Assembly (NCBI RefSeq): GCF_048403405.1
Contig: NZ_CP183129.1
Origin: Escherichia coli
GTDB lineage: Bacteria > Pseudomonadota > Gammaproteobacteria > Enterobacterales > Enterobacteriaceae
Direction: 5' to 3' (one strand)
Length of the DNA: 64,000 nucleotides
Position numbers and translations under genes: made by a program. Of the stretch, positions 56,336 to 63,943 are shown piece by piece. The notes beneath the pieces were generated by a model. The model searched no databases. It was not told where the DNA came from and saw only the letters and a list, made by a program, of their open reading frames with translations. Positions within the stretch are counted from its first letter, which is position 1. Every line of letters begins with the position of its first letter.

Positions 56336-57913
56336 ATGACGGAAAACATTCATAAGCATCGCATCCTCATTCTGGACTTCGGTTCTCAGTACACTCAACT
56401 GGTTGCGCGCCGCGTGCGTGAACTGGGTGTTTACTGCGTACTGTGGGCGTGGGATGTGACAGAAGCACAAATTCGTGACTTCAACCCAAGCGGCATTATT
56501 CTTTCCGGCGGCCCGGAAAGCACCACCGAAGAAAACAGCCCGCGTGCGCCGCAGTATGTCTTTGAAGCAGGCGTACCGGTATTCGGCGTTTGCTATGGCA
56601 TGCAGACCATGGCAATGCAGTTGGGCGGTCACGTTGAAGCCTCTAACGAACGTGAATTTGGCTACGCGCAGGTTGAAGTCGTAAACGACAGCGCACTGGT
56701 TCGCGGTATCGAAGATGCGCTGACTGCAGACGGTAAACCGCTGCTCGATGTCTGGATGAGCCACGGCGATAAAGTTACCGCTATCCCGTCCGACTTCGTC
56801 ACCGTAGCCAGCACCGAAAGCTGCCCGTTTGCCATTATGGCCAACGAAGAAAAACGCTTCTACGGCGTACAGTTCCACCCGGAAGTGACTCACACCCGCC
56901 AGGGTATGCGCATGCTGGAGCGCTTTGTGCGTGATATCTGCCAGTGTGAAGCCCTGTGGACGCCGGCGAAAATTATCGACGACGCTGTAGCTCGCATCCG
57001 CGAGCAGGTGGGCGACGATAAAGTCATCCTCGGCCTTTCTGGTGGCGTGGATTCCTCCGTAACCGCAATGCTGCTGCACCGCGCTATCGGTAAAAACCTG
57101 ACTTGCGTATTCGTCGACAACGGCCTGCTGCGTCTCAACGAAGCAGAGCAGGTTCTGGATATGTTTGGCGATCACTTTGGTCTCAATATTGTTCACGTTC
57201 CGGCAGAAGATCGCTTCCTGTCAGCGCTGGCTGGCGAAAACGATCCGGAAGCAAAACGTAAAATCATCGGGCGCGTTTTCGTTGAAGTATTCGATGAAGA
57301 AGCGCTGAAACTGGAAGACGTGAAGTGGCTGGCGCAGGGTACTATCTACCCTGACGTTATCGAATCTGCGGCGTCTGCAACCGGTAAAGCACACGTCATC
57401 AAATCTCACCACAACGTGGGCGGCCTGCCGAAAGAGATGAAGATGGGCCTGGTTGAACCGCTGAAAGAGCTGTTCAAAGACGAAGTGCGTAAGATTGGTC
57501 TGGAGCTGGGCCTGCCGTACGACATGCTGTACCGTCATCCGTTCCCGGGACCAGGCCTTGGCGTTCGTGTTCTGGGTGAAGTGAAGAAAGAGTACTGTGA
57601 CCTGCTGCGCCGCGCTGACGCCATCTTCATTGAAGAACTGCGTAAAGCGGGCCTGTACGACAAAGTCAGCCAGGCGTTCACCGTCTTCCTGCCAGTACGT
57701 TCCGTTGGCGTAATGGGCGATGGTCGTAAGTATGACTGGGTTGTCTCTCTGCGTGCTGTCGAAACCATCGACTTTATGACCGCACACTGGGCGCATCTGC
57801 CGTACGATTTCCTCGGTCGCGTTTCCAACCGCATTATCAATGAAGTGAACGGTATTTCCCGCGTGGTGTATGACATCAGCGGCAAGCCGCCAGCTACCAT
57901 TGAGTGGGAATGA
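56336..57913 (+). CDS. guaA: GMP synthase (glutamine-hydrolysing)
   Basis: 525 aa; GATase domain plus ATP-PPase motif SGGVDSSV. Confidence 0.96.
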
Positions 57914-58105: not shown

Positions 58106-59356
58106 GTGCTTACCGATACAAAATTAAAAAACCTCAAGCCGCAGGACAAACTGTACAAGGTCTCCGATCGTGACGGGCTGTATGTAGCTGTGCTTACGTC
58201 AGGCACGGTCTCGTTTCGCTATGACTACCGTATCAACGGTCGCCGCGAAACACTGGTAATCGGGCAGTATGGGCGTGACGGTATCAGCCTGGCAGAAGCG
58301 CGAGAAGAACTGATTGCTGCAAAGAAGCTGCTTAAAGCAGGCCAGTCACCGGCTGCGGCTAAACGTGACGGTATCAAAAAGATTCGTGGTGCCGAGACGT
58401 TTGCGGTACATACCGACAGTTATATGAAACATGTCATCCTGGCTGACAGTACCCGCGCAATGAAGCAGGCGGTGATCGACCGTGACATACTTCCGGTTCT
58501 TGGCAACAAAATGATGACTGAAATTACCACATCGATGGTTCGTGATTTGTGTGACCGGATTGTCGAACGCGGTGGTCGGGCAACAGCAGTGCAGGCCAGG
58601 GAGATCATCAGCAGCGTATACCGTCACGCCAATGACCGTGGTCATGGTTTGTTTAATCCTGCGGCTGACATTAAACCTTCGTCTATCGCCATATTTAAAC
58701 CACGAGAGCGAACACTGACGCCAGAAGAAATTGGCCTGTTCTTCCGCACGCTGGATGCCATTGGTGCTATGGGCACTATGAAAATGGCTTTAAAGCTGGT
58801 GCTTATCACTATGGTTCGTAAAGGCGAATTCACCAATGCAACGTGGGACGAAATAGATTTTAAAAAATGGACATGGACAATTCCTTCAGACCGCATGAAG
58901 GGAAGCCGGGCGCATGTTATTTACCTGCCTAAACAGGCACAGGATATATTGGTCGGGTTGCAGATGTGCGCTGGTGGAAGTGAATATCTGGTTCCTGGTC
59001 GTTACAACTTCCGGAAGCCATTATCTAATGCCGCGCTGAACTCTCTGATCGACAGAACGGTGAAAATAATAAATGAAGATGGTGAGCATATTCAGGACTT
59101 CACCGTACATGATATGCGCCGTACAGCCAGTACGTTGTTGCATGAGGCTGGTTATCCTTCAGACTGGATTGAAAAGGCTCTGGCACATGAGCAGAAAGGT
59201 GTGCGCGCCGTATATAACAAAGCGGAATACGCCAGACAGCGCGCCTACATGTTGCAGCAGTGGGCCGATATGATTGATTCCTGGATTGACGGGGAGCATA
59301 CGGATCTGATTCCGTTCTCCCCGTCGAAGTTTGAGAAGTGGATGGCGGGAGAATAA
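58106..59356 (+). CDS. Tyrosine recombinase, P4-type phage integrase
   Basis: GTG start; N-terminus LTDTKLKNLKPQDKLYKVSDRDGLYVAV...FRYDYRINGRRE typical of P4-family integrase arm-binding domain; C-terminal catalytic region with HDMRRT and Y near end. Confidence 0.9.
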   Translation: MLTDTKLKNLKPQDKLYKVSDRDGLYVAVLTSGTVSFRYDYRINGRRETLVIGQYGRDGISLAEAREELIAAKKLLKAGQSPAAAKRDGIKKIRGAETFAVHTDSYMKHVILADSTRAMKQAVIDRDILPVLGNKMMTEITTSMVRDLCDRIVERGGRATAVQAREIISSVYRHANDRGHGLFNPAADIKPSSIAIFKPRERTLTPEEIGLFFRTLDAIGAMGTMKMALKLVLITMVRKGEFTNATWDEIDFKKWTWTIPSDRMKGSRAHVIYLPKQAQDILVGLQMCAGGSEYLVPGRYNFRKPLSNAALNSLIDRTVKIINEDGEHIQDFTVHDMRRTASTLLHEAGYPSDWIEKALAHEQKGVRAVYNKAEYARQRAYMLQQWADMIDSWIDGEHTDLIPFSPSKFEKWMAGE

Positions 59357-60900: not shown

Positions 60901-61782
60901 TTACATAGATGTTTCGTTTAATTCTTCCCGACGAACGCTGTAAACGTCGGTGGCTTTTGCCAGCAGTTCGTCATCATCTGAAAGTTTTTGTGCAATGTAT
61001 TTGTAAGCCTTATCCAGTTCGGAGACAGTGCTGTAATTCATCGCTGCGCTGGTAAAGGCCATCAGCATTTCTTCTGGATCACGGCTATCCGCTTTACGCG
61101 TTTGCTCATCAGGCTTTTTCACTGGTTTAGCGTTGATCAGACTGTTCATTCCCGCAGCAGTAGTTGTTTGCGGAGTAATGTCTCGCTCAACGCGCGGTGC
61201 CGTTTCCTGTAATTCGTCAGGGGTGTAAACACCGAGAAGTACATCAGGAGCGTGCAGGCGAGCCCATCGTTTCGTGCAAAGATAGGCAAGTTGCTGGCGC
61301 GGATCCTGTTCCCACAATGGAGAGTTACGCACTCCGGCTTGCGCCATACTGATGGTAAGCTCACGGGGTTCTGCTTCTCCTTTAAGAACTGCTGACACAG
61401 TTACCGTCAGATTCGGTGATTTATCTGTTTTGCCGTTAACATTCGACCAGTCACCGCTCCAGCGATAATTCAGGCGTGTCGCTAGCAGGCTGGAAGAGGA
61501 TACGACCGCGTTTACCAACTGTGCTTCGTAGCCTAACGTTCCGTTTACCACATGCGTTTTCTGCGCCACGGCGAAAGGGTTCATTCCCCACTGTGCCGCC
61601 TGCATGGTCACCGCCAGGCAATCGGCAGGTTTGCCTTCAAGATGTTTCGGCACAGTCGCTTTGCTTTGTGACATCAACTCCGCGAAACGCACCAGTTGAT
61701 TCATGCCCTCGGGGCTGAAGATTGCCGCAGCAGTGCCTACAGTTGCGCCTGGTTGTGATGTGATTGCGATATCATTGCTCAT
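60901..61782 (-). CDS. Putative RecT/Bet-like single-strand annealing protein
   Basis: 293 aa immediately downstream of and overlapping an exonuclease gene; region ...AAQWGMNPFAVAQKTHVVNGTLGYE... resembles RecT-family core; assignment by context and weak motif. Confidence 0.5.
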   Translation of the reverse strand: MSNDIAITSQPGATVGTAAAIFSPEGMNQLVRFAELMSQSKATVPKHLEGKPADCLAVTMQAAQWGMNPFAVAQKTHVVNGTLGYEAQLVNAVVSSSSLLATRLNYRWSGDWSNVNGKTDKSPNLTVTVSAVLKGEAEPRELTISMAQAGVRNSPLWEQDPRQQLAYLCTKRWARLHAPDVLLGVYTPDELQETAPRVERDITPQTTTAAGMNSLINAKPVKKPDEQTRKADSRDPEEMLMAFTSAAMNYSTVSELDKAYKYIAQKLSDDDELLAKATDVYSVRREELNETSM

Positions 61783-62600
61783 ACGTACATATCCTGTTTA
61801 CGTGCCCAGTCAGGGCGTTTAATAATTTCCACTCCGCCCCATTCATCGTTGATGCGGCATTCGTGATAGGTATTCAGATCCCGGCGGAACAGAGCGTGCC
61901 CGGCATCGACATCTGGCGCATCCAGCTCGAACACGCGTACCGGATACCGACCACAATCAATGCTTTCGCTCACGGCAAGAAAGAAAAAACCATGCGGCTG
62001 ACCAGTAACCCTCATTGCGCCTTCGCGGTACATTGCGTCCTGCACGTGGTAGCGGAATTCCTCGATGTGGCGTGCAAAACGGTCCATATCTGCAACCTTT
62101 TTCACGTCGACGATCACGTTGTGCTCGTTCAGCCATTTGTCTGGACGAATTCGGCACAACTCACCCGTCTCTTCATCATTCCAGTACATTGATGCTTCGC
62201 AGTAACCAGGTGCTTCCAGCATCCAGCGTGCCGCCGGGTGAGCCATTGCGCTATCACGCATCAGCTCCAGTTTCCGCCACTGCTCGGCATCAAGTACCGT
62301 AATCCCCATATCCGCCACATCACGAAGAAATGCCTCTTCGTCAGCTTTACCTTGTTTCGTCCGACGATCGAATTTCGGTGAAACAATGAAGCGTTTGTCG
62401 AACTCTCCAGGCTCCAGAAGCAGACAGTGCAATGCGGTTCCCATATCCAGTGCAGACTTTTTCTCTTCGTCTTCTGGTGCTGCCTGAACCCATTTAAGAA
62501 GCGCCGGATTCTTGGCAACCATGTCTAGTTGCGACTTACTCACTCCGTCACCGGCGTGGTAGTCTTCGTTGCTGATGTCGAAATAAATTCCCGGTTTCAT
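61779..62600 (-). CDS. PD-(D/E)XK-type exonuclease (exodeoxyribonuclease VIII / RecE-like C-terminal domain)
   Basis: 273 aa; N-terminal GIYFDISNEDYHAGDGVSKSQL and IVDVKK block fit this nuclease fold; paired with annealing protein. Confidence 0.65.
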   Translation of the reverse strand: MKPGIYFDISNEDYHAGDGVSKSQLDMVAKNPALLKWVQAAPEDEEKKSALDMGTALHCLLLEPGEFDKRFIVSPKFDRRTKQGKADEEAFLRDVADMGITVLDAEQWRKLELMRDSAMAHPAARWMLEAPGYCEASMYWNDEETGELCRIRPDKWLNEHNVIVDVKKVADMDRFARHIEEFRYHVQDAMYREGAMRVTGQPHGFFFLAVSESIDCGRYPVRVFELDAPDVDAGHALFRRDLNTYHECRINDEWGGVEIIKRPDWARKQDMYV

Positions 62601-62895
62601 GCCGCGTCCCTCTGTCCATCAAGCTGATCCGCCAGATCCCAGCGGGCGATAATTGCCATTGCCTCTCGCCGGTAGGCATCCATCAGTTCTTCGAACTCAG
62701 GGCTGTCTTTAGCAGCCTCCAGTACTTCCTGACGAACGCCTTTGCCTGTTACAACGTCGAAAGTTGAGGACAGTTGATGAAGTCGGATGCTCTCAATCAG
62801 TTCAACTTGTCGGTCATATAGCTGTTCTGACAGGCGGTAGTCCTTGTCGAATGCCAGCATGATTTTTTGAAGATTTTTCTGCTGATTAACGTTCA
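62597..62895 (-). CDS. Hypothetical phage early protein
   Basis: ~99 aa from ATG 62895 (MNVNQQKNL...); stop overlaps exonuclease start; unknown function. Confidence 0.4.
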
Positions 62896-62897
62896 TT

Positions 62898-63051
62898 ATC
62901 AGCCCTCCCATATCTCGTTATCGTTGGCCACATCGCGAGCTTCTTTGCTGACGAAAGCCCACTTAATGCCTTCCTGTAAGGTGCGGAACTTCCAGCTCAT
63001 GAATCCGCATGCAGTAACGCAGTACCAACCGTTGATGATTTTCCACTGCAT
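62898..63051 (-). CDS. Small ORF (50 aa), first gene of leftward early operon (tentative)
   Basis: MQWKIINGWYCVTACGFMSWKFRTLQEGIKWAFVSKEARDVANDNEIWEG; not in the supplied ORF track (<60 aa), found by manual translation. Confidence 0.3.
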
Positions 63052-63057
63052 AACTTG

Positions 63058-63147
63058 TTACCTCGGTCTGTTACCGTTGAGGTAATGATTATGCGTATCT
63101 GGTTTGATGTCAATAGATATGAGTTAAAAAAATTACCCAACAGGTAA
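63058..63147. promoter_or_regulatory. Early-operon promoter/operator region with inverted repeats
   Basis: TTACCTC-N14-GAGGTAA (63058-63085) and palindrome TTACCCAACAGGTAA (63133-63147), which recurs at 63845-63859. Confidence 0.5.
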
Positions 63148-63156
63148 TCTAACAGG

Positions 63157-63184
63157 CAATAAAAAAGCCGCCATGAGGCGGCTT
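63157..63184 (-). terminator. Rho-independent terminator downstream of repressor gene
   Basis: aagccgcc-atga-ggcggctt hairpin with U-tract on minus strand. Confidence 0.65.
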
Positions 63185-63204
63185 ACTTGCTGAAAACTAT
63201 AGTT

Positions 63205-63789
63205 TTATTGTTTGTTTTTTTCGTTCTGGTTGATGACAAATTCAATGTAACTTTCGATCTTTGCTTTCTCGGTTTCGGGTAACAATGCGTAGCGCGAGCG
63301 GTCATAGTTGATAGTCGCAGGGTCGTGCGGGTGAATCAGTAATTCATAGCCATGACGCCCGAATGCGGATGCAACATTCTCCAGGGTGGAAATGGAAACG
63401 CTGACCTCATTGTTTAACAGGCGGCTGATTGTCACCTGGGCGACGCCGGATGCGCGGTGTAGTTTTCCCTGCGTTGAAAGGTCGCGGCTTTCGCTCATCC
63501 AGCGTTCCAGGTTGTGAGCAGCCAGCTGACCTATATCACTCGGGCCGACAGGCTGAAAACCTTCCTGAGAAAGCGAGCGATCGATATCAAGCCAGTTACG
63601 GGGTTTATTGGCGGCAGCTTCAATTTTTCGCGCAACCTGGTCGCCGATAACCTTCTTGCCAAGAGCCCAGCGGTTTACCAGATTTGCCTGAGTTCCAAGT
63701 TTTTCTGCCATCCGCGTCTGAACACCATTGAATTCACGGTCGATCAAGTCGTTGAGATTTTGCCTGCGGACGTCCTGGATACTTTTCAT
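63205..63789 (-). CDS. Phage repressor-like protein with two HTH (XRE/CI-type) domains
   Basis: 194 aa; two helix-turn-helix-like segments (QTRMAEKLGTQANLVNRWALG and LHRASGVAQVTISRLLNNEVSVSISTL); flanked by operator-like palindromes. Confidence 0.6.
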   Translation of the reverse strand: MKSIQDVRRQNLNDLIDREFNGVQTRMAEKLGTQANLVNRWALGKKVIGDQVARKIEAAANKPRNWLDIDRSLSQEGFQPVGPSDIGQLAAHNLERWMSESRDLSTQGKLHRASGVAQVTISRLLNNEVSVSISTLENVASAFGRHGYELLIHPHDPATINYDRSRYALLPETEKAKIESYIEFVINQNEKNKQ

Positions 63790-63943
63790 TTTCTGGAAAA
63801 TCGCCTCATATATGAATCAGTAGATGATTCAATTTAAAGCAATATTACCCAACAGGTAAATGCACCTCATAGGTAACTATCCTTGATTTTTGTTACCTTA
63901 TGGGTGAATATTTATTATCTGAAATAAATATCAGGCAATAGCT
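63790..63943. promoter_or_regulatory. Divergent promoter/operator region (repressor vs rightward gene)
   Basis: Contains TTACCCAACAGGTAA (63845-63859) and GGTAAC...GTTACC inverted repeats. Confidence 0.5.

Follow-up and report, generated by a model that had tools for sequence, protein, structure and literature searches.

Phages encode several kinds of small early proteins that act on the host nuclease RecBCD, and these are the closest described counterparts of the locus considered here. The best known is lambda Gam (Pfam PF06064; structures 2uuz and 5mbv), an acidic protein of ~98 aa in its GamS form, which comprises Gam residues 41–138 (PMC5218532) and has an isoelectric point (pI) of 5.0; its N-terminal helix fills the single-strand channel of RecB (PMC5218532). 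The lambda gene adjoins the genes of an Exo/Bet-type exonuclease–annealase pair in a repressor-controlled early leftward operon. In phage phi80, the Mog gene (agt), glossed in the phage record as 'modifier of Gam', lies immediately upstream of gamL, which is annotated as a 'gam-like host nuclease inhibitor, toxic without Mog'. In the Rac prophage, recE-recT belong to an early operon in which they are immediately preceded by the small genes racC, ydaE and kilR, of unassigned or host-directed function. P22 Abc2 and T7 gp5.9 are further small early proteins that manipulate RecBCD, with Abc2 binding RecC and modifying rather than blocking the enzyme (PMC9836394). The only inhibitor types named in a 2025 survey of the recombination modules of lambdoids are Gam, GamL, Abc2 and MuGam (PMC12315714). 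Here we analyze a stretch of 64,000 nucleotides from Escherichia coli (contig NZ_CP183129.1 of assembly GCF_048403405.1; hereafter the window), at the end of which lies a prophage whose early leftward operon opens with two small open reading frames (ORFs), ORF-A (50 aa) and ORF-B (99 aa).

Our analysis showed that ORF-B directly precedes recombinase genes, in the manner of gam, and bears a weak but repeatable similarity to Gam. It is probably a distant Gam relative that has so far gone unrecognized, in phages with an odd enrichment of Chi sites. A sequence-only reading of the window had described the two ORFs as tightly packed first genes of a leftward operon without a recognizable family, at a place where lambdoid phages encode functions such as Gam or Kil analogues. 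What it observed was confirmed, with the two ORFs present where it placed them save for boundaries that were off by one base, and its interpretation was partly supported. In particular, the Gam half of the guess fits ORF-B by its exonuclease/annealase neighbors, its position corresponding to gamL after Mog and its similarity to Gam, whereas a Kil, cIII or YdaE type is not supported for ORF-A. The lambdoid framing did not hold, as the element is an epsilon15/phiV10-type Uetakevirus prophage.

By their sequences, both ORFs are real genes rather than chance ORFs. ORF-A matches PHROG 898 end to end (E 2e-38) and ORF-B matches PHROG 856 (E 1.5e-55), and RefSeq annotates the two as the hypothetical proteins WP_001198620.1 and WP_001102257.1. 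The absence of ORF-A from the ORF list of the window, which had been remarked upon, is thus a length-cutoff artefact (the default cutoff is 60 aa) and the gene itself is annotated. The list also gives a 104-aa version of ORF-B starting at 62911, but both the RefSeq annotation and the place of the ribosome-binding site favor the 99-aa form. ORF-A is under purifying selection, with a ratio of nonsynonymous to synonymous differences (pN/pS) of 0.05–0.38 against its relatives, the synonymous sites of which differ by up to 0.7, while ORF-B keeps a length of 97–102 aa in full-length relatives down to ~30% identity. Neither window protein had a match in Pfam, NCBIfam, PADLOC or a PDB sequence search, and we found no paper mentioning their accessions; the lack of a recognizable family therefore stands in these searches, and gives way only to the remote Gam likeness of ORF-B described below. 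Further, the two were confirmed to open an early operon under the control of a repressor, because a terminator, a promoter and two operators, which are exact palindromes flanking that promoter, lie immediately upstream (Table 1). The tight packing is likewise borne out: 2 bases separate the ORF-A stop from the ORF-B start, and the ORF-B stop overlaps the exonuclease start (ATGA).

The similarity of ORF-B to Gam emerged from four methods—profile–profile comparison, Pfam, BLASTP and PDB profile search—all of which gave the same register. First, the ORF-B family profile aligned with a GamS-type profile at an hhalign probability of 80% (E 1.4e-5; ORF-B residues 31–86 on GamS 33–90); across the profile–profile comparisons the probability ranged from 78 to 80%, and the overall register places ORF-B ~27–94 on GamS ~29–96. 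Second, for P0086, an ORF-B family member with 44% identity to the window protein, the best Pfam family was Gam (E 0.004, 17.7 bits, residues 31–94 on profile positions 33–96). Third, BLASTP aligned 75 residues of P0086 with GamS at 31% identity and a pairwise E of 4e-6. Fourth, in a PDB profile search with the ORF-B family, 5mbv and 2uuz, both structures of Gam, ranked highest among the non-repeat matches (E 0.08), with the register unchanged. The similarity is weak and collinear over the C-terminal two-thirds of the protein, with the common pattern G...A..D..EF.E.M....R.....IA.

Controls for composition separate this signal from that of shuffled sequences. With cleaned alignments the ORF-B/Gam score was 32.6, compared to a mean of 11.7 (standard deviation 2.3) for 200 column shuffles and a mean of 15.5 with a maximum of 29.3 for 200 seven-column block shuffles; the real score was reached by none of the 200 shuffles of either kind, and the reversed Gam alignment scored 18.3. 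When a Gam hidden Markov model (HMM) was run against 4182 six-frame segments from 24 sources, lambda Gam came first, the next 16 segments were all ORF-B relatives or phi80 GamL, and the first unrelated segment appeared at E 1.2. ORF-B also resembles GamS in its bulk properties, with a pI of 4.7 and a net charge of −6 (pI 4.5–5.2 across the full-length family). It is predicted to be all-helical with a long first helix, and its AlphaFold model, which is of low confidence (pLDDT, the predicted local distance difference test, 65), has one long helix at the N terminus and shorter ones after it. Profile comparison and structure prediction had both been suggested in the sequence-only reading: the former gave the Gam match for ORF-B and nothing meaningful for ORF-A, and the latter gave poor models for both (pLDDT 58 for ORF-A).

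Several observations weigh against this assignment. All the individual ORF-B/Gam scores lie below threshold: the 17.7 bits of P0086 fall under the Pfam Gam gathering score of 25 bits, the PDB match at E 0.08 is sub-threshold, and the protein of the window fails to match Pfam Gam even at E ≤ 10 and reaches E 0.42 with the Gam HMM, which is below significance. Residues 1–30 of ORF-B have no confident alignment to the Gam N-terminal helix, so that the part of Gam that plugs RecB is not conserved. Moreover, a shallower alignment settled on a different register; ORF-B thus has two copies of a short motif, acidic and helical, that could raise the scores artificially. The two copies, AFDKDYRLSEQLYDR at residues 15–29 and AAKDSPEFEELMDAY at residues 61–75, both resemble Gam AFDDDVEFQERMAEH, which hints at an internal repeat. 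Fold searches with the poor ORF-B model returned nothing specific. Weighing both sides, we regard Gam-superfamily ancestry of ORF-B as likely, and file it as a divergent relative of Gam rather than as a member of the family, because it fails the Pfam threshold and lacks the conserved N-terminal helix. We found no database record or paper linking ORF-B to Gam.

The relationship to phi80 GamL is of a different sort. GamL is of similar size (93 aa) and has a comparably weak lambda Gam HMM score, but it has no detectable similarity to ORF-B, and a sequence relationship between the two was rejected (hhalign probability 0.3%, BLASTP E 5.6). GamL keeps the Gam N-terminal helix, with 50% identity over the first 26 residues and little else shared; thus the product of phi80 gamL (L013 7555–7836) shares only the start of Gam and ORF-B only its later part, and by their sequences Gam-type proteins look mosaic. 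A relationship of ORF-B to RacC or to the N-terminal region of RecE was also discarded, as there is no sequence similarity to either. Rac resembles the window in having small genes just upstream of recE-recT, but its RecE is the long 866-aa form and ORF-A shows no similarity to YdaE. In a Pfam search, which is not a direct comparison, ORF-B had no match to families of the Abc2 or gp5.9 kind, with which the proposed role of ORF-B, as a small early protein manipulating RecBCD, would be analogous.

The gene neighborhoods offer a second line of evidence. In all the loci examined, ORF-B is followed directly, and mostly with an overlap, by a gene for an exonuclease and/or an annealase. Its partners are mostly a DUF3799 exonuclease with RecT, and thus of the RecE/RecT type as opposed to the Exo/Bet type of Gam; a YqaJ-type exonuclease takes this place in locus L015, RecT follows directly in L003, and divergent RecT types are found in L100 and L103. 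ORF-B occurs both in Uetakevirus settings and in lambdoid ones (L005 and L100, with an S24 repressor and KilR and without ORF-A). Since these lambdoid loci carry it but lack ORF-A, ORF-B travels with the recombination module rather than with the phage type. Further, in seven loci (L004, L014, L015, L016, L101, L102 and L103) a Mog/Agt homologue with 45–68% identity to that of phi80 lies directly upstream of ORF-B, giving the slot order of phi80, namely Mog, a small Gam-type gene and recombinase genes. Because Mog homologues adjoin ORF-B as Mog adjoins gamL, ORF-B fills the Gam slot of a Mog–Gam–recombinase cassette.

The Mog homologues, which stand between ORF-A and ORF-B in many relatives, are highly charged proteins of ~310–370 aa rich in Glu, Ala, Arg and Lys (L004 264–1244; L014 3980–4993; L016 4034–4993; L101 1144–2070; L102 3947–4993; L103 3893–4993). 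Unlike phi80, the window phage has no Mog gene, either between ORF-A and ORF-B or elsewhere in the window. In Enterobacter phage Tyrion, a 45-aa CxxC...CxxC gene is inserted between ORF-B and the exonuclease gene. ORF-B is only 39–41% identical in loci where the adjacent RecE is 73–79% identical, and such fast evolution is as expected for a protein at the interface with the host. A scan of IMG/VR with the close ORF-B alignment returned near-identical loci only, and a scan with P0101 found nothing.

The distribution of Chi sites (GCTGGTGG) bears on whether RecBCD is the target. The set examined comprised the whole phiV10 genome (L017), L018, L019 and the site at position 58970 of the window. 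In phiV10, a single strand carries all 8 of the Chi sites, compared to 1.95 ± 1.32 expected from synonymous-codon shuffles that keep the proteins and the codon usage, none of 500 of which reached 8. The same count of 8, again confined to one strand, was obtained for a related prophage, and epsilon15 has 6 in its first 28 kb. Among lambdoids, abundant top-strand Chi goes with the absence of a RecBCD inhibitor (PMC12315714 Table 1; PMC3784561), depletion of Chi being a correlate of encoding such an inhibitor, and lambda, in contrast to these Chi-rich phages, is without Chi. This wealth of Chi speaks against, and calls into question, ORF-B as a full block of RecBCD. Three ways out are possible. 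First, ORF-B may block RecBCD partly or during part of the cycle only. Second, the rule relating Chi to inhibitors may not carry over to Uetakevirus-type phages. Third, Chi may be selected in the lysogen; the polarity of the sole prophage Chi within the window (58970) matches that of 11 of the 12 Chi sites of the chromosomal flank; by the shared integrase orientation, the other phiV10 Chi sites also share this polarity. Even among lambdoids that encode an inhibitor, 24 of 202 carry at least 4 Chi sites (PMC12315714 Table 1). On balance, the case for and against ORF-B blocking RecBCD seems to us evenly divided.

Taken together, these observations suggest the following course of events. Derepression of the prophage would lead to transcription from the operator-flanked early promoter, and ORF-A, ORF-B, the RecE-like exonuclease and RecT would be read as one tightly coupled unit. 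ORF-B, as a putative fast-evolving and divergent member of the lambda Gam superfamily, would be the third part of a Gam–Exo–annealase recombination module that moves between phage types. It probably blocks a nuclease by mimicking DNA: as a dimer, acidic and helical, it would imitate a DNA end and fill the site at which a host nuclease acting on double-strand ends binds DNA, RecBCD being the most likely target. This would spare the linear and rolling-circle DNA of the phage, its ends being processed by RecE/RecT and not by the host enzyme. ORF-A would be a separate small protein of the repressor/promoter module and would act by binding a partner protein as soon as lytic development sets in. We hold this combined explanation, with a nuclease-blocking ORF-B of the Gam superfamily and a separate early ORF-A, to be about as probable as all else together.

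Among the alternatives, the one that survives best is that ORF-B descends from Gam and, with its N-terminal helix replaced, has lost the block of RecBCD; it would either inhibit a different end-processing nuclease, SbcCD for example, or load or regulate the short RecE/RecT pair as an accessory subunit, with RecBCD and Chi active on the phage genome. The alignment with Gam only over ORF-B ~31–90, without the RecB-channel helix, and the strong enrichment of co-oriented Chi in phiV10 and epsilon15 after control for codon usage are consistent with it, as are the translational coupling of ORF-B to the exonuclease and the reported interaction of lambda Gam with SbcCD as well (PMC5218532). However, ORF-B shows no similarity to the RecE N-terminal region or RacC, holds the gamL position behind Mog homologues and also precedes unrelated exonuclease/annealase types, which speaks against a dedicated subunit; the inhibitor-encoding lambdoids with several Chi sites noted above also tell against it, and we consider it rather unlikely. 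Slightly less probable still, and doubtful in our view, is a version in which ORF-B is a Gam-fold protein with a swapped RecB-plugging helix, directed at another nuclease or modulating RecBCD partially, and ORF-A is a new kind of switch protein, encoded next to the promoter and peculiar to immunity regions of the epsilon15 type; it would account for the Gam-like gene and the positively selected co-oriented Chi together. That ORF-B resembles Gam only through the chance composition of short proteins that are acidic and helical, and is itself an unrelated accessory protein of the recombination module, is improbable: the sub-threshold scores, the alternative register and the unspecific fold searches would fit such an accident, but four methods share one register, composition-preserving shuffles never match the real score, the reversed alignment falls far short of it (18 as opposed to 33), all 16 matches behind lambda Gam are ORF-B relatives or GamL, and length, charge and gene position agree with Gam.

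ORF-A is tied to a different part of the locus. In the wider set of loci it occurs only where a repressor with two helix-turn-helix (HTH) domains and operators are present, always just after the promoter; it persists with or without Mog and is missing from the lambdoid loci that carry ORF-B. Its N-terminal 25 residues (MQWKIINGWYCVTACGLMSWKFRTL) are almost invariant across phages of Escherichia, Salmonella, Klebsiella and Enterobacter. The Asn-Gly (NG) turn at residues 7–8 becomes Asp-Gly (DG) in divergent relatives and is flanked by aromatic or beta-branched residues, which points to a beta-hairpin at the N terminus with an amphipathic helix after it; the AlphaFold model shows one long helix and is not trustworthy. 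A Cys pair is not conserved. In Enterobacter phage Tyrion, ORF-A (L009 2847–2996) is intact and unannotated, with gp39 annotated on the opposite strand over the same DNA. In the relative L016 it has a one-base frameshift near codon 32, reflecting either an assembly error or a pseudogene, and an extra 50-aa gene lies between the promoter and ORF-A (L016 3693–4030).

Searches for relatives of ORF-A gave no similarity to the obvious candidates. Comparisons with lambda Kil (hhalign probability 0.1%) and lambda CIII (0.5%, and no Pfam match) failed, YdaE shows no similarity, and an ORF-A HMM had no significant match among all the ORFs of the early regions of lambda, phi80 and Rac, the Rac kilR region included. 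A supposed likeness to the hybrid-binding domain of RNase H1 and to CIII was backed by no search, and weak matches to DUF2985, to a transmembrane segment of mucolipin and to a zinc-binding family of phages were at chance level or came from one frameshifted variant. A transmembrane segment is itself unlikely, as relatives place an Asp inside it. The Pfam and PDB matches of ORF-A are at chance level only. Because of its link to the immunity region, the most reasonable guess is that it acts at the switch or helps to take over the host early on. A sharper proposal would make ORF-A a growth-arresting takeover microprotein in the manner of Kil, or a latch that reinforces derepression via the repressor. 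Its place as first gene after the repressor-controlled promoter, its restriction to loci with the two-HTH repressor, its nearly invariant N terminus, the strong purifying selection and the conserved turn, suggestive of a folded hairpin, are compatible with such a role, but the failed comparisons with Kil, cIII, YdaE and the other early ORFs including KilR, the chance-level matches, the uninformative model and a frameshifted copy hinting that the gene may be dispensable make it unlikely.

The prophage is inserted directly after guaA (56336–57913), with its integrase at 58106–59356, toward which the minus-strand early operon heads. The 751 bases around both ORFs are 97–98% identical to phages phiV10, TL-2011b, vB_EcoP_ZX5 and related phages, and the stretch with both genes is present in 558 of 5426 complete E. 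coli genomes. ORF-A and ORF-B correspond to gp39 and gp38 of phiV10 and to gp37 and gp36 of epsilon15. Phage records with ORF-A and with ORF-B number 36 each, with an identical breakdown by host genus, and belong to the epsilon15/phiV10 group and relatives.

Table 1. Features of the early leftward region, with positions in the window.
Feature	Position	Strand	Remarks
Repressor-like gene, 194 aa, HTH domains, phiV10 gp40/epsilon15 gp38 type	63205–63789	−	Pfam HTH_3 E 1.2e-9; upstream of the operon, same strand
Intrinsic terminator of the repressor transcript	63165–63184	−	8-bp stem with 6 GC pairs, then T run; phiV10 annotates a terminator at the equivalent place
Operator-like palindrome TTACC-N5-GGTAA, immediately ahead of the −35 hexamer	63133–63147	.	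Exact match; kept in relatives
Early leftward promoter TTGACA-17 nt-AATCAT	63085–63113	−	10/12 consensus matches; arrangement also in L004, L014 and L016
Second operator-like palindrome TTACC-N5-GGTAA, abuts the −10 hexamer and spans the likely transcription start	63071–63085	.	Exact match
ORF-A, 50 aa, ATG start, orphan microprotein, phrog_898	62899–63051	−	GAGG 9 nt before ATG
ORF-B, 99 aa, ATG start, Gam-like, acidic, predicted all-helical, phrog_856	62597–62896	−	GGGAGGG precedes ATG
RecE-like PD-(D/E)XK exonuclease (DUF3799), 273 aa	61779–62600	−	Pfam E 4e-22; phrog_412 exonuclease VIII E 1e-126
RecT single-strand annealing protein, 293 aa	60901–61782	−	Pfam RecT E 1e-31; PHROG E 2e-145; start overlaps exonuclease stop

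The phiV10 and epsilon15 records label the gene upstream of the operon as the repressor, and an epsilon15 note cites the SPC32H repressor structure 5d50. The palindrome, allowing up to one mismatch, occurs 10 times in the window compared to 0.99 expected, and 4 of the 10 cluster at 63071–63907. Two of these four are the copies of Table 1; the others (63845–63859 and 63893–63907) lie upstream of the repressor gene, presumably at a divergent rightward promoter. The epsilon15 record annotates repressor-binding sites at the place equivalent to the window palindromes.

Following RecT, the operon continues with an AlpA-type gene, a 38-aa ORF recorded as a 'membrane protein' in phiV10, a PerC-like gene, an MT-A70 methyltransferase gene and a DUF1382 gene. 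In phiV10, gp37 (L001 5651–7411) is a single 586-aa RecE–RecT fusion, whereas the window (60901–62600) has two genes with a four-base overlap; either the fusion is real, or the two differ by a frameshift or in their sequencing. The prophage of E. coli CM2 (L002 9146–11513), nearly identical in other respects, has DGQHR-domain and Ser/Thr phosphatase genes near the methyltransferase gene. As both are missing from the window phage (59360–60213), the integrase-proximal end of the operon carries variable cargo.

Overall, these results amount to a modest gain in annotation and to no new kind of system. They concern two genes that are carried by roughly a tenth of complete E. coli genomes and appear in 36 phage records, and that are labeled "hypothetical" in every record checked; ORF-A adds a further conserved early microprotein, as yet an orphan. 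If ORF-B works as a Gam relative, annotation pipelines and surveys of RecBCD inhibitors would have missed a complete three-part recombination module, and a compact RecE/RecT/Gam-like cassette would be usable for recombineering. The co-occurrence of a Gam-like gene with co-oriented Chi is unexpected under the current 'inhibitor or Chi, not both' picture, and with a working Gam relative this phage group would provide a test of the trade-off between RecBCD inhibitors and Chi.

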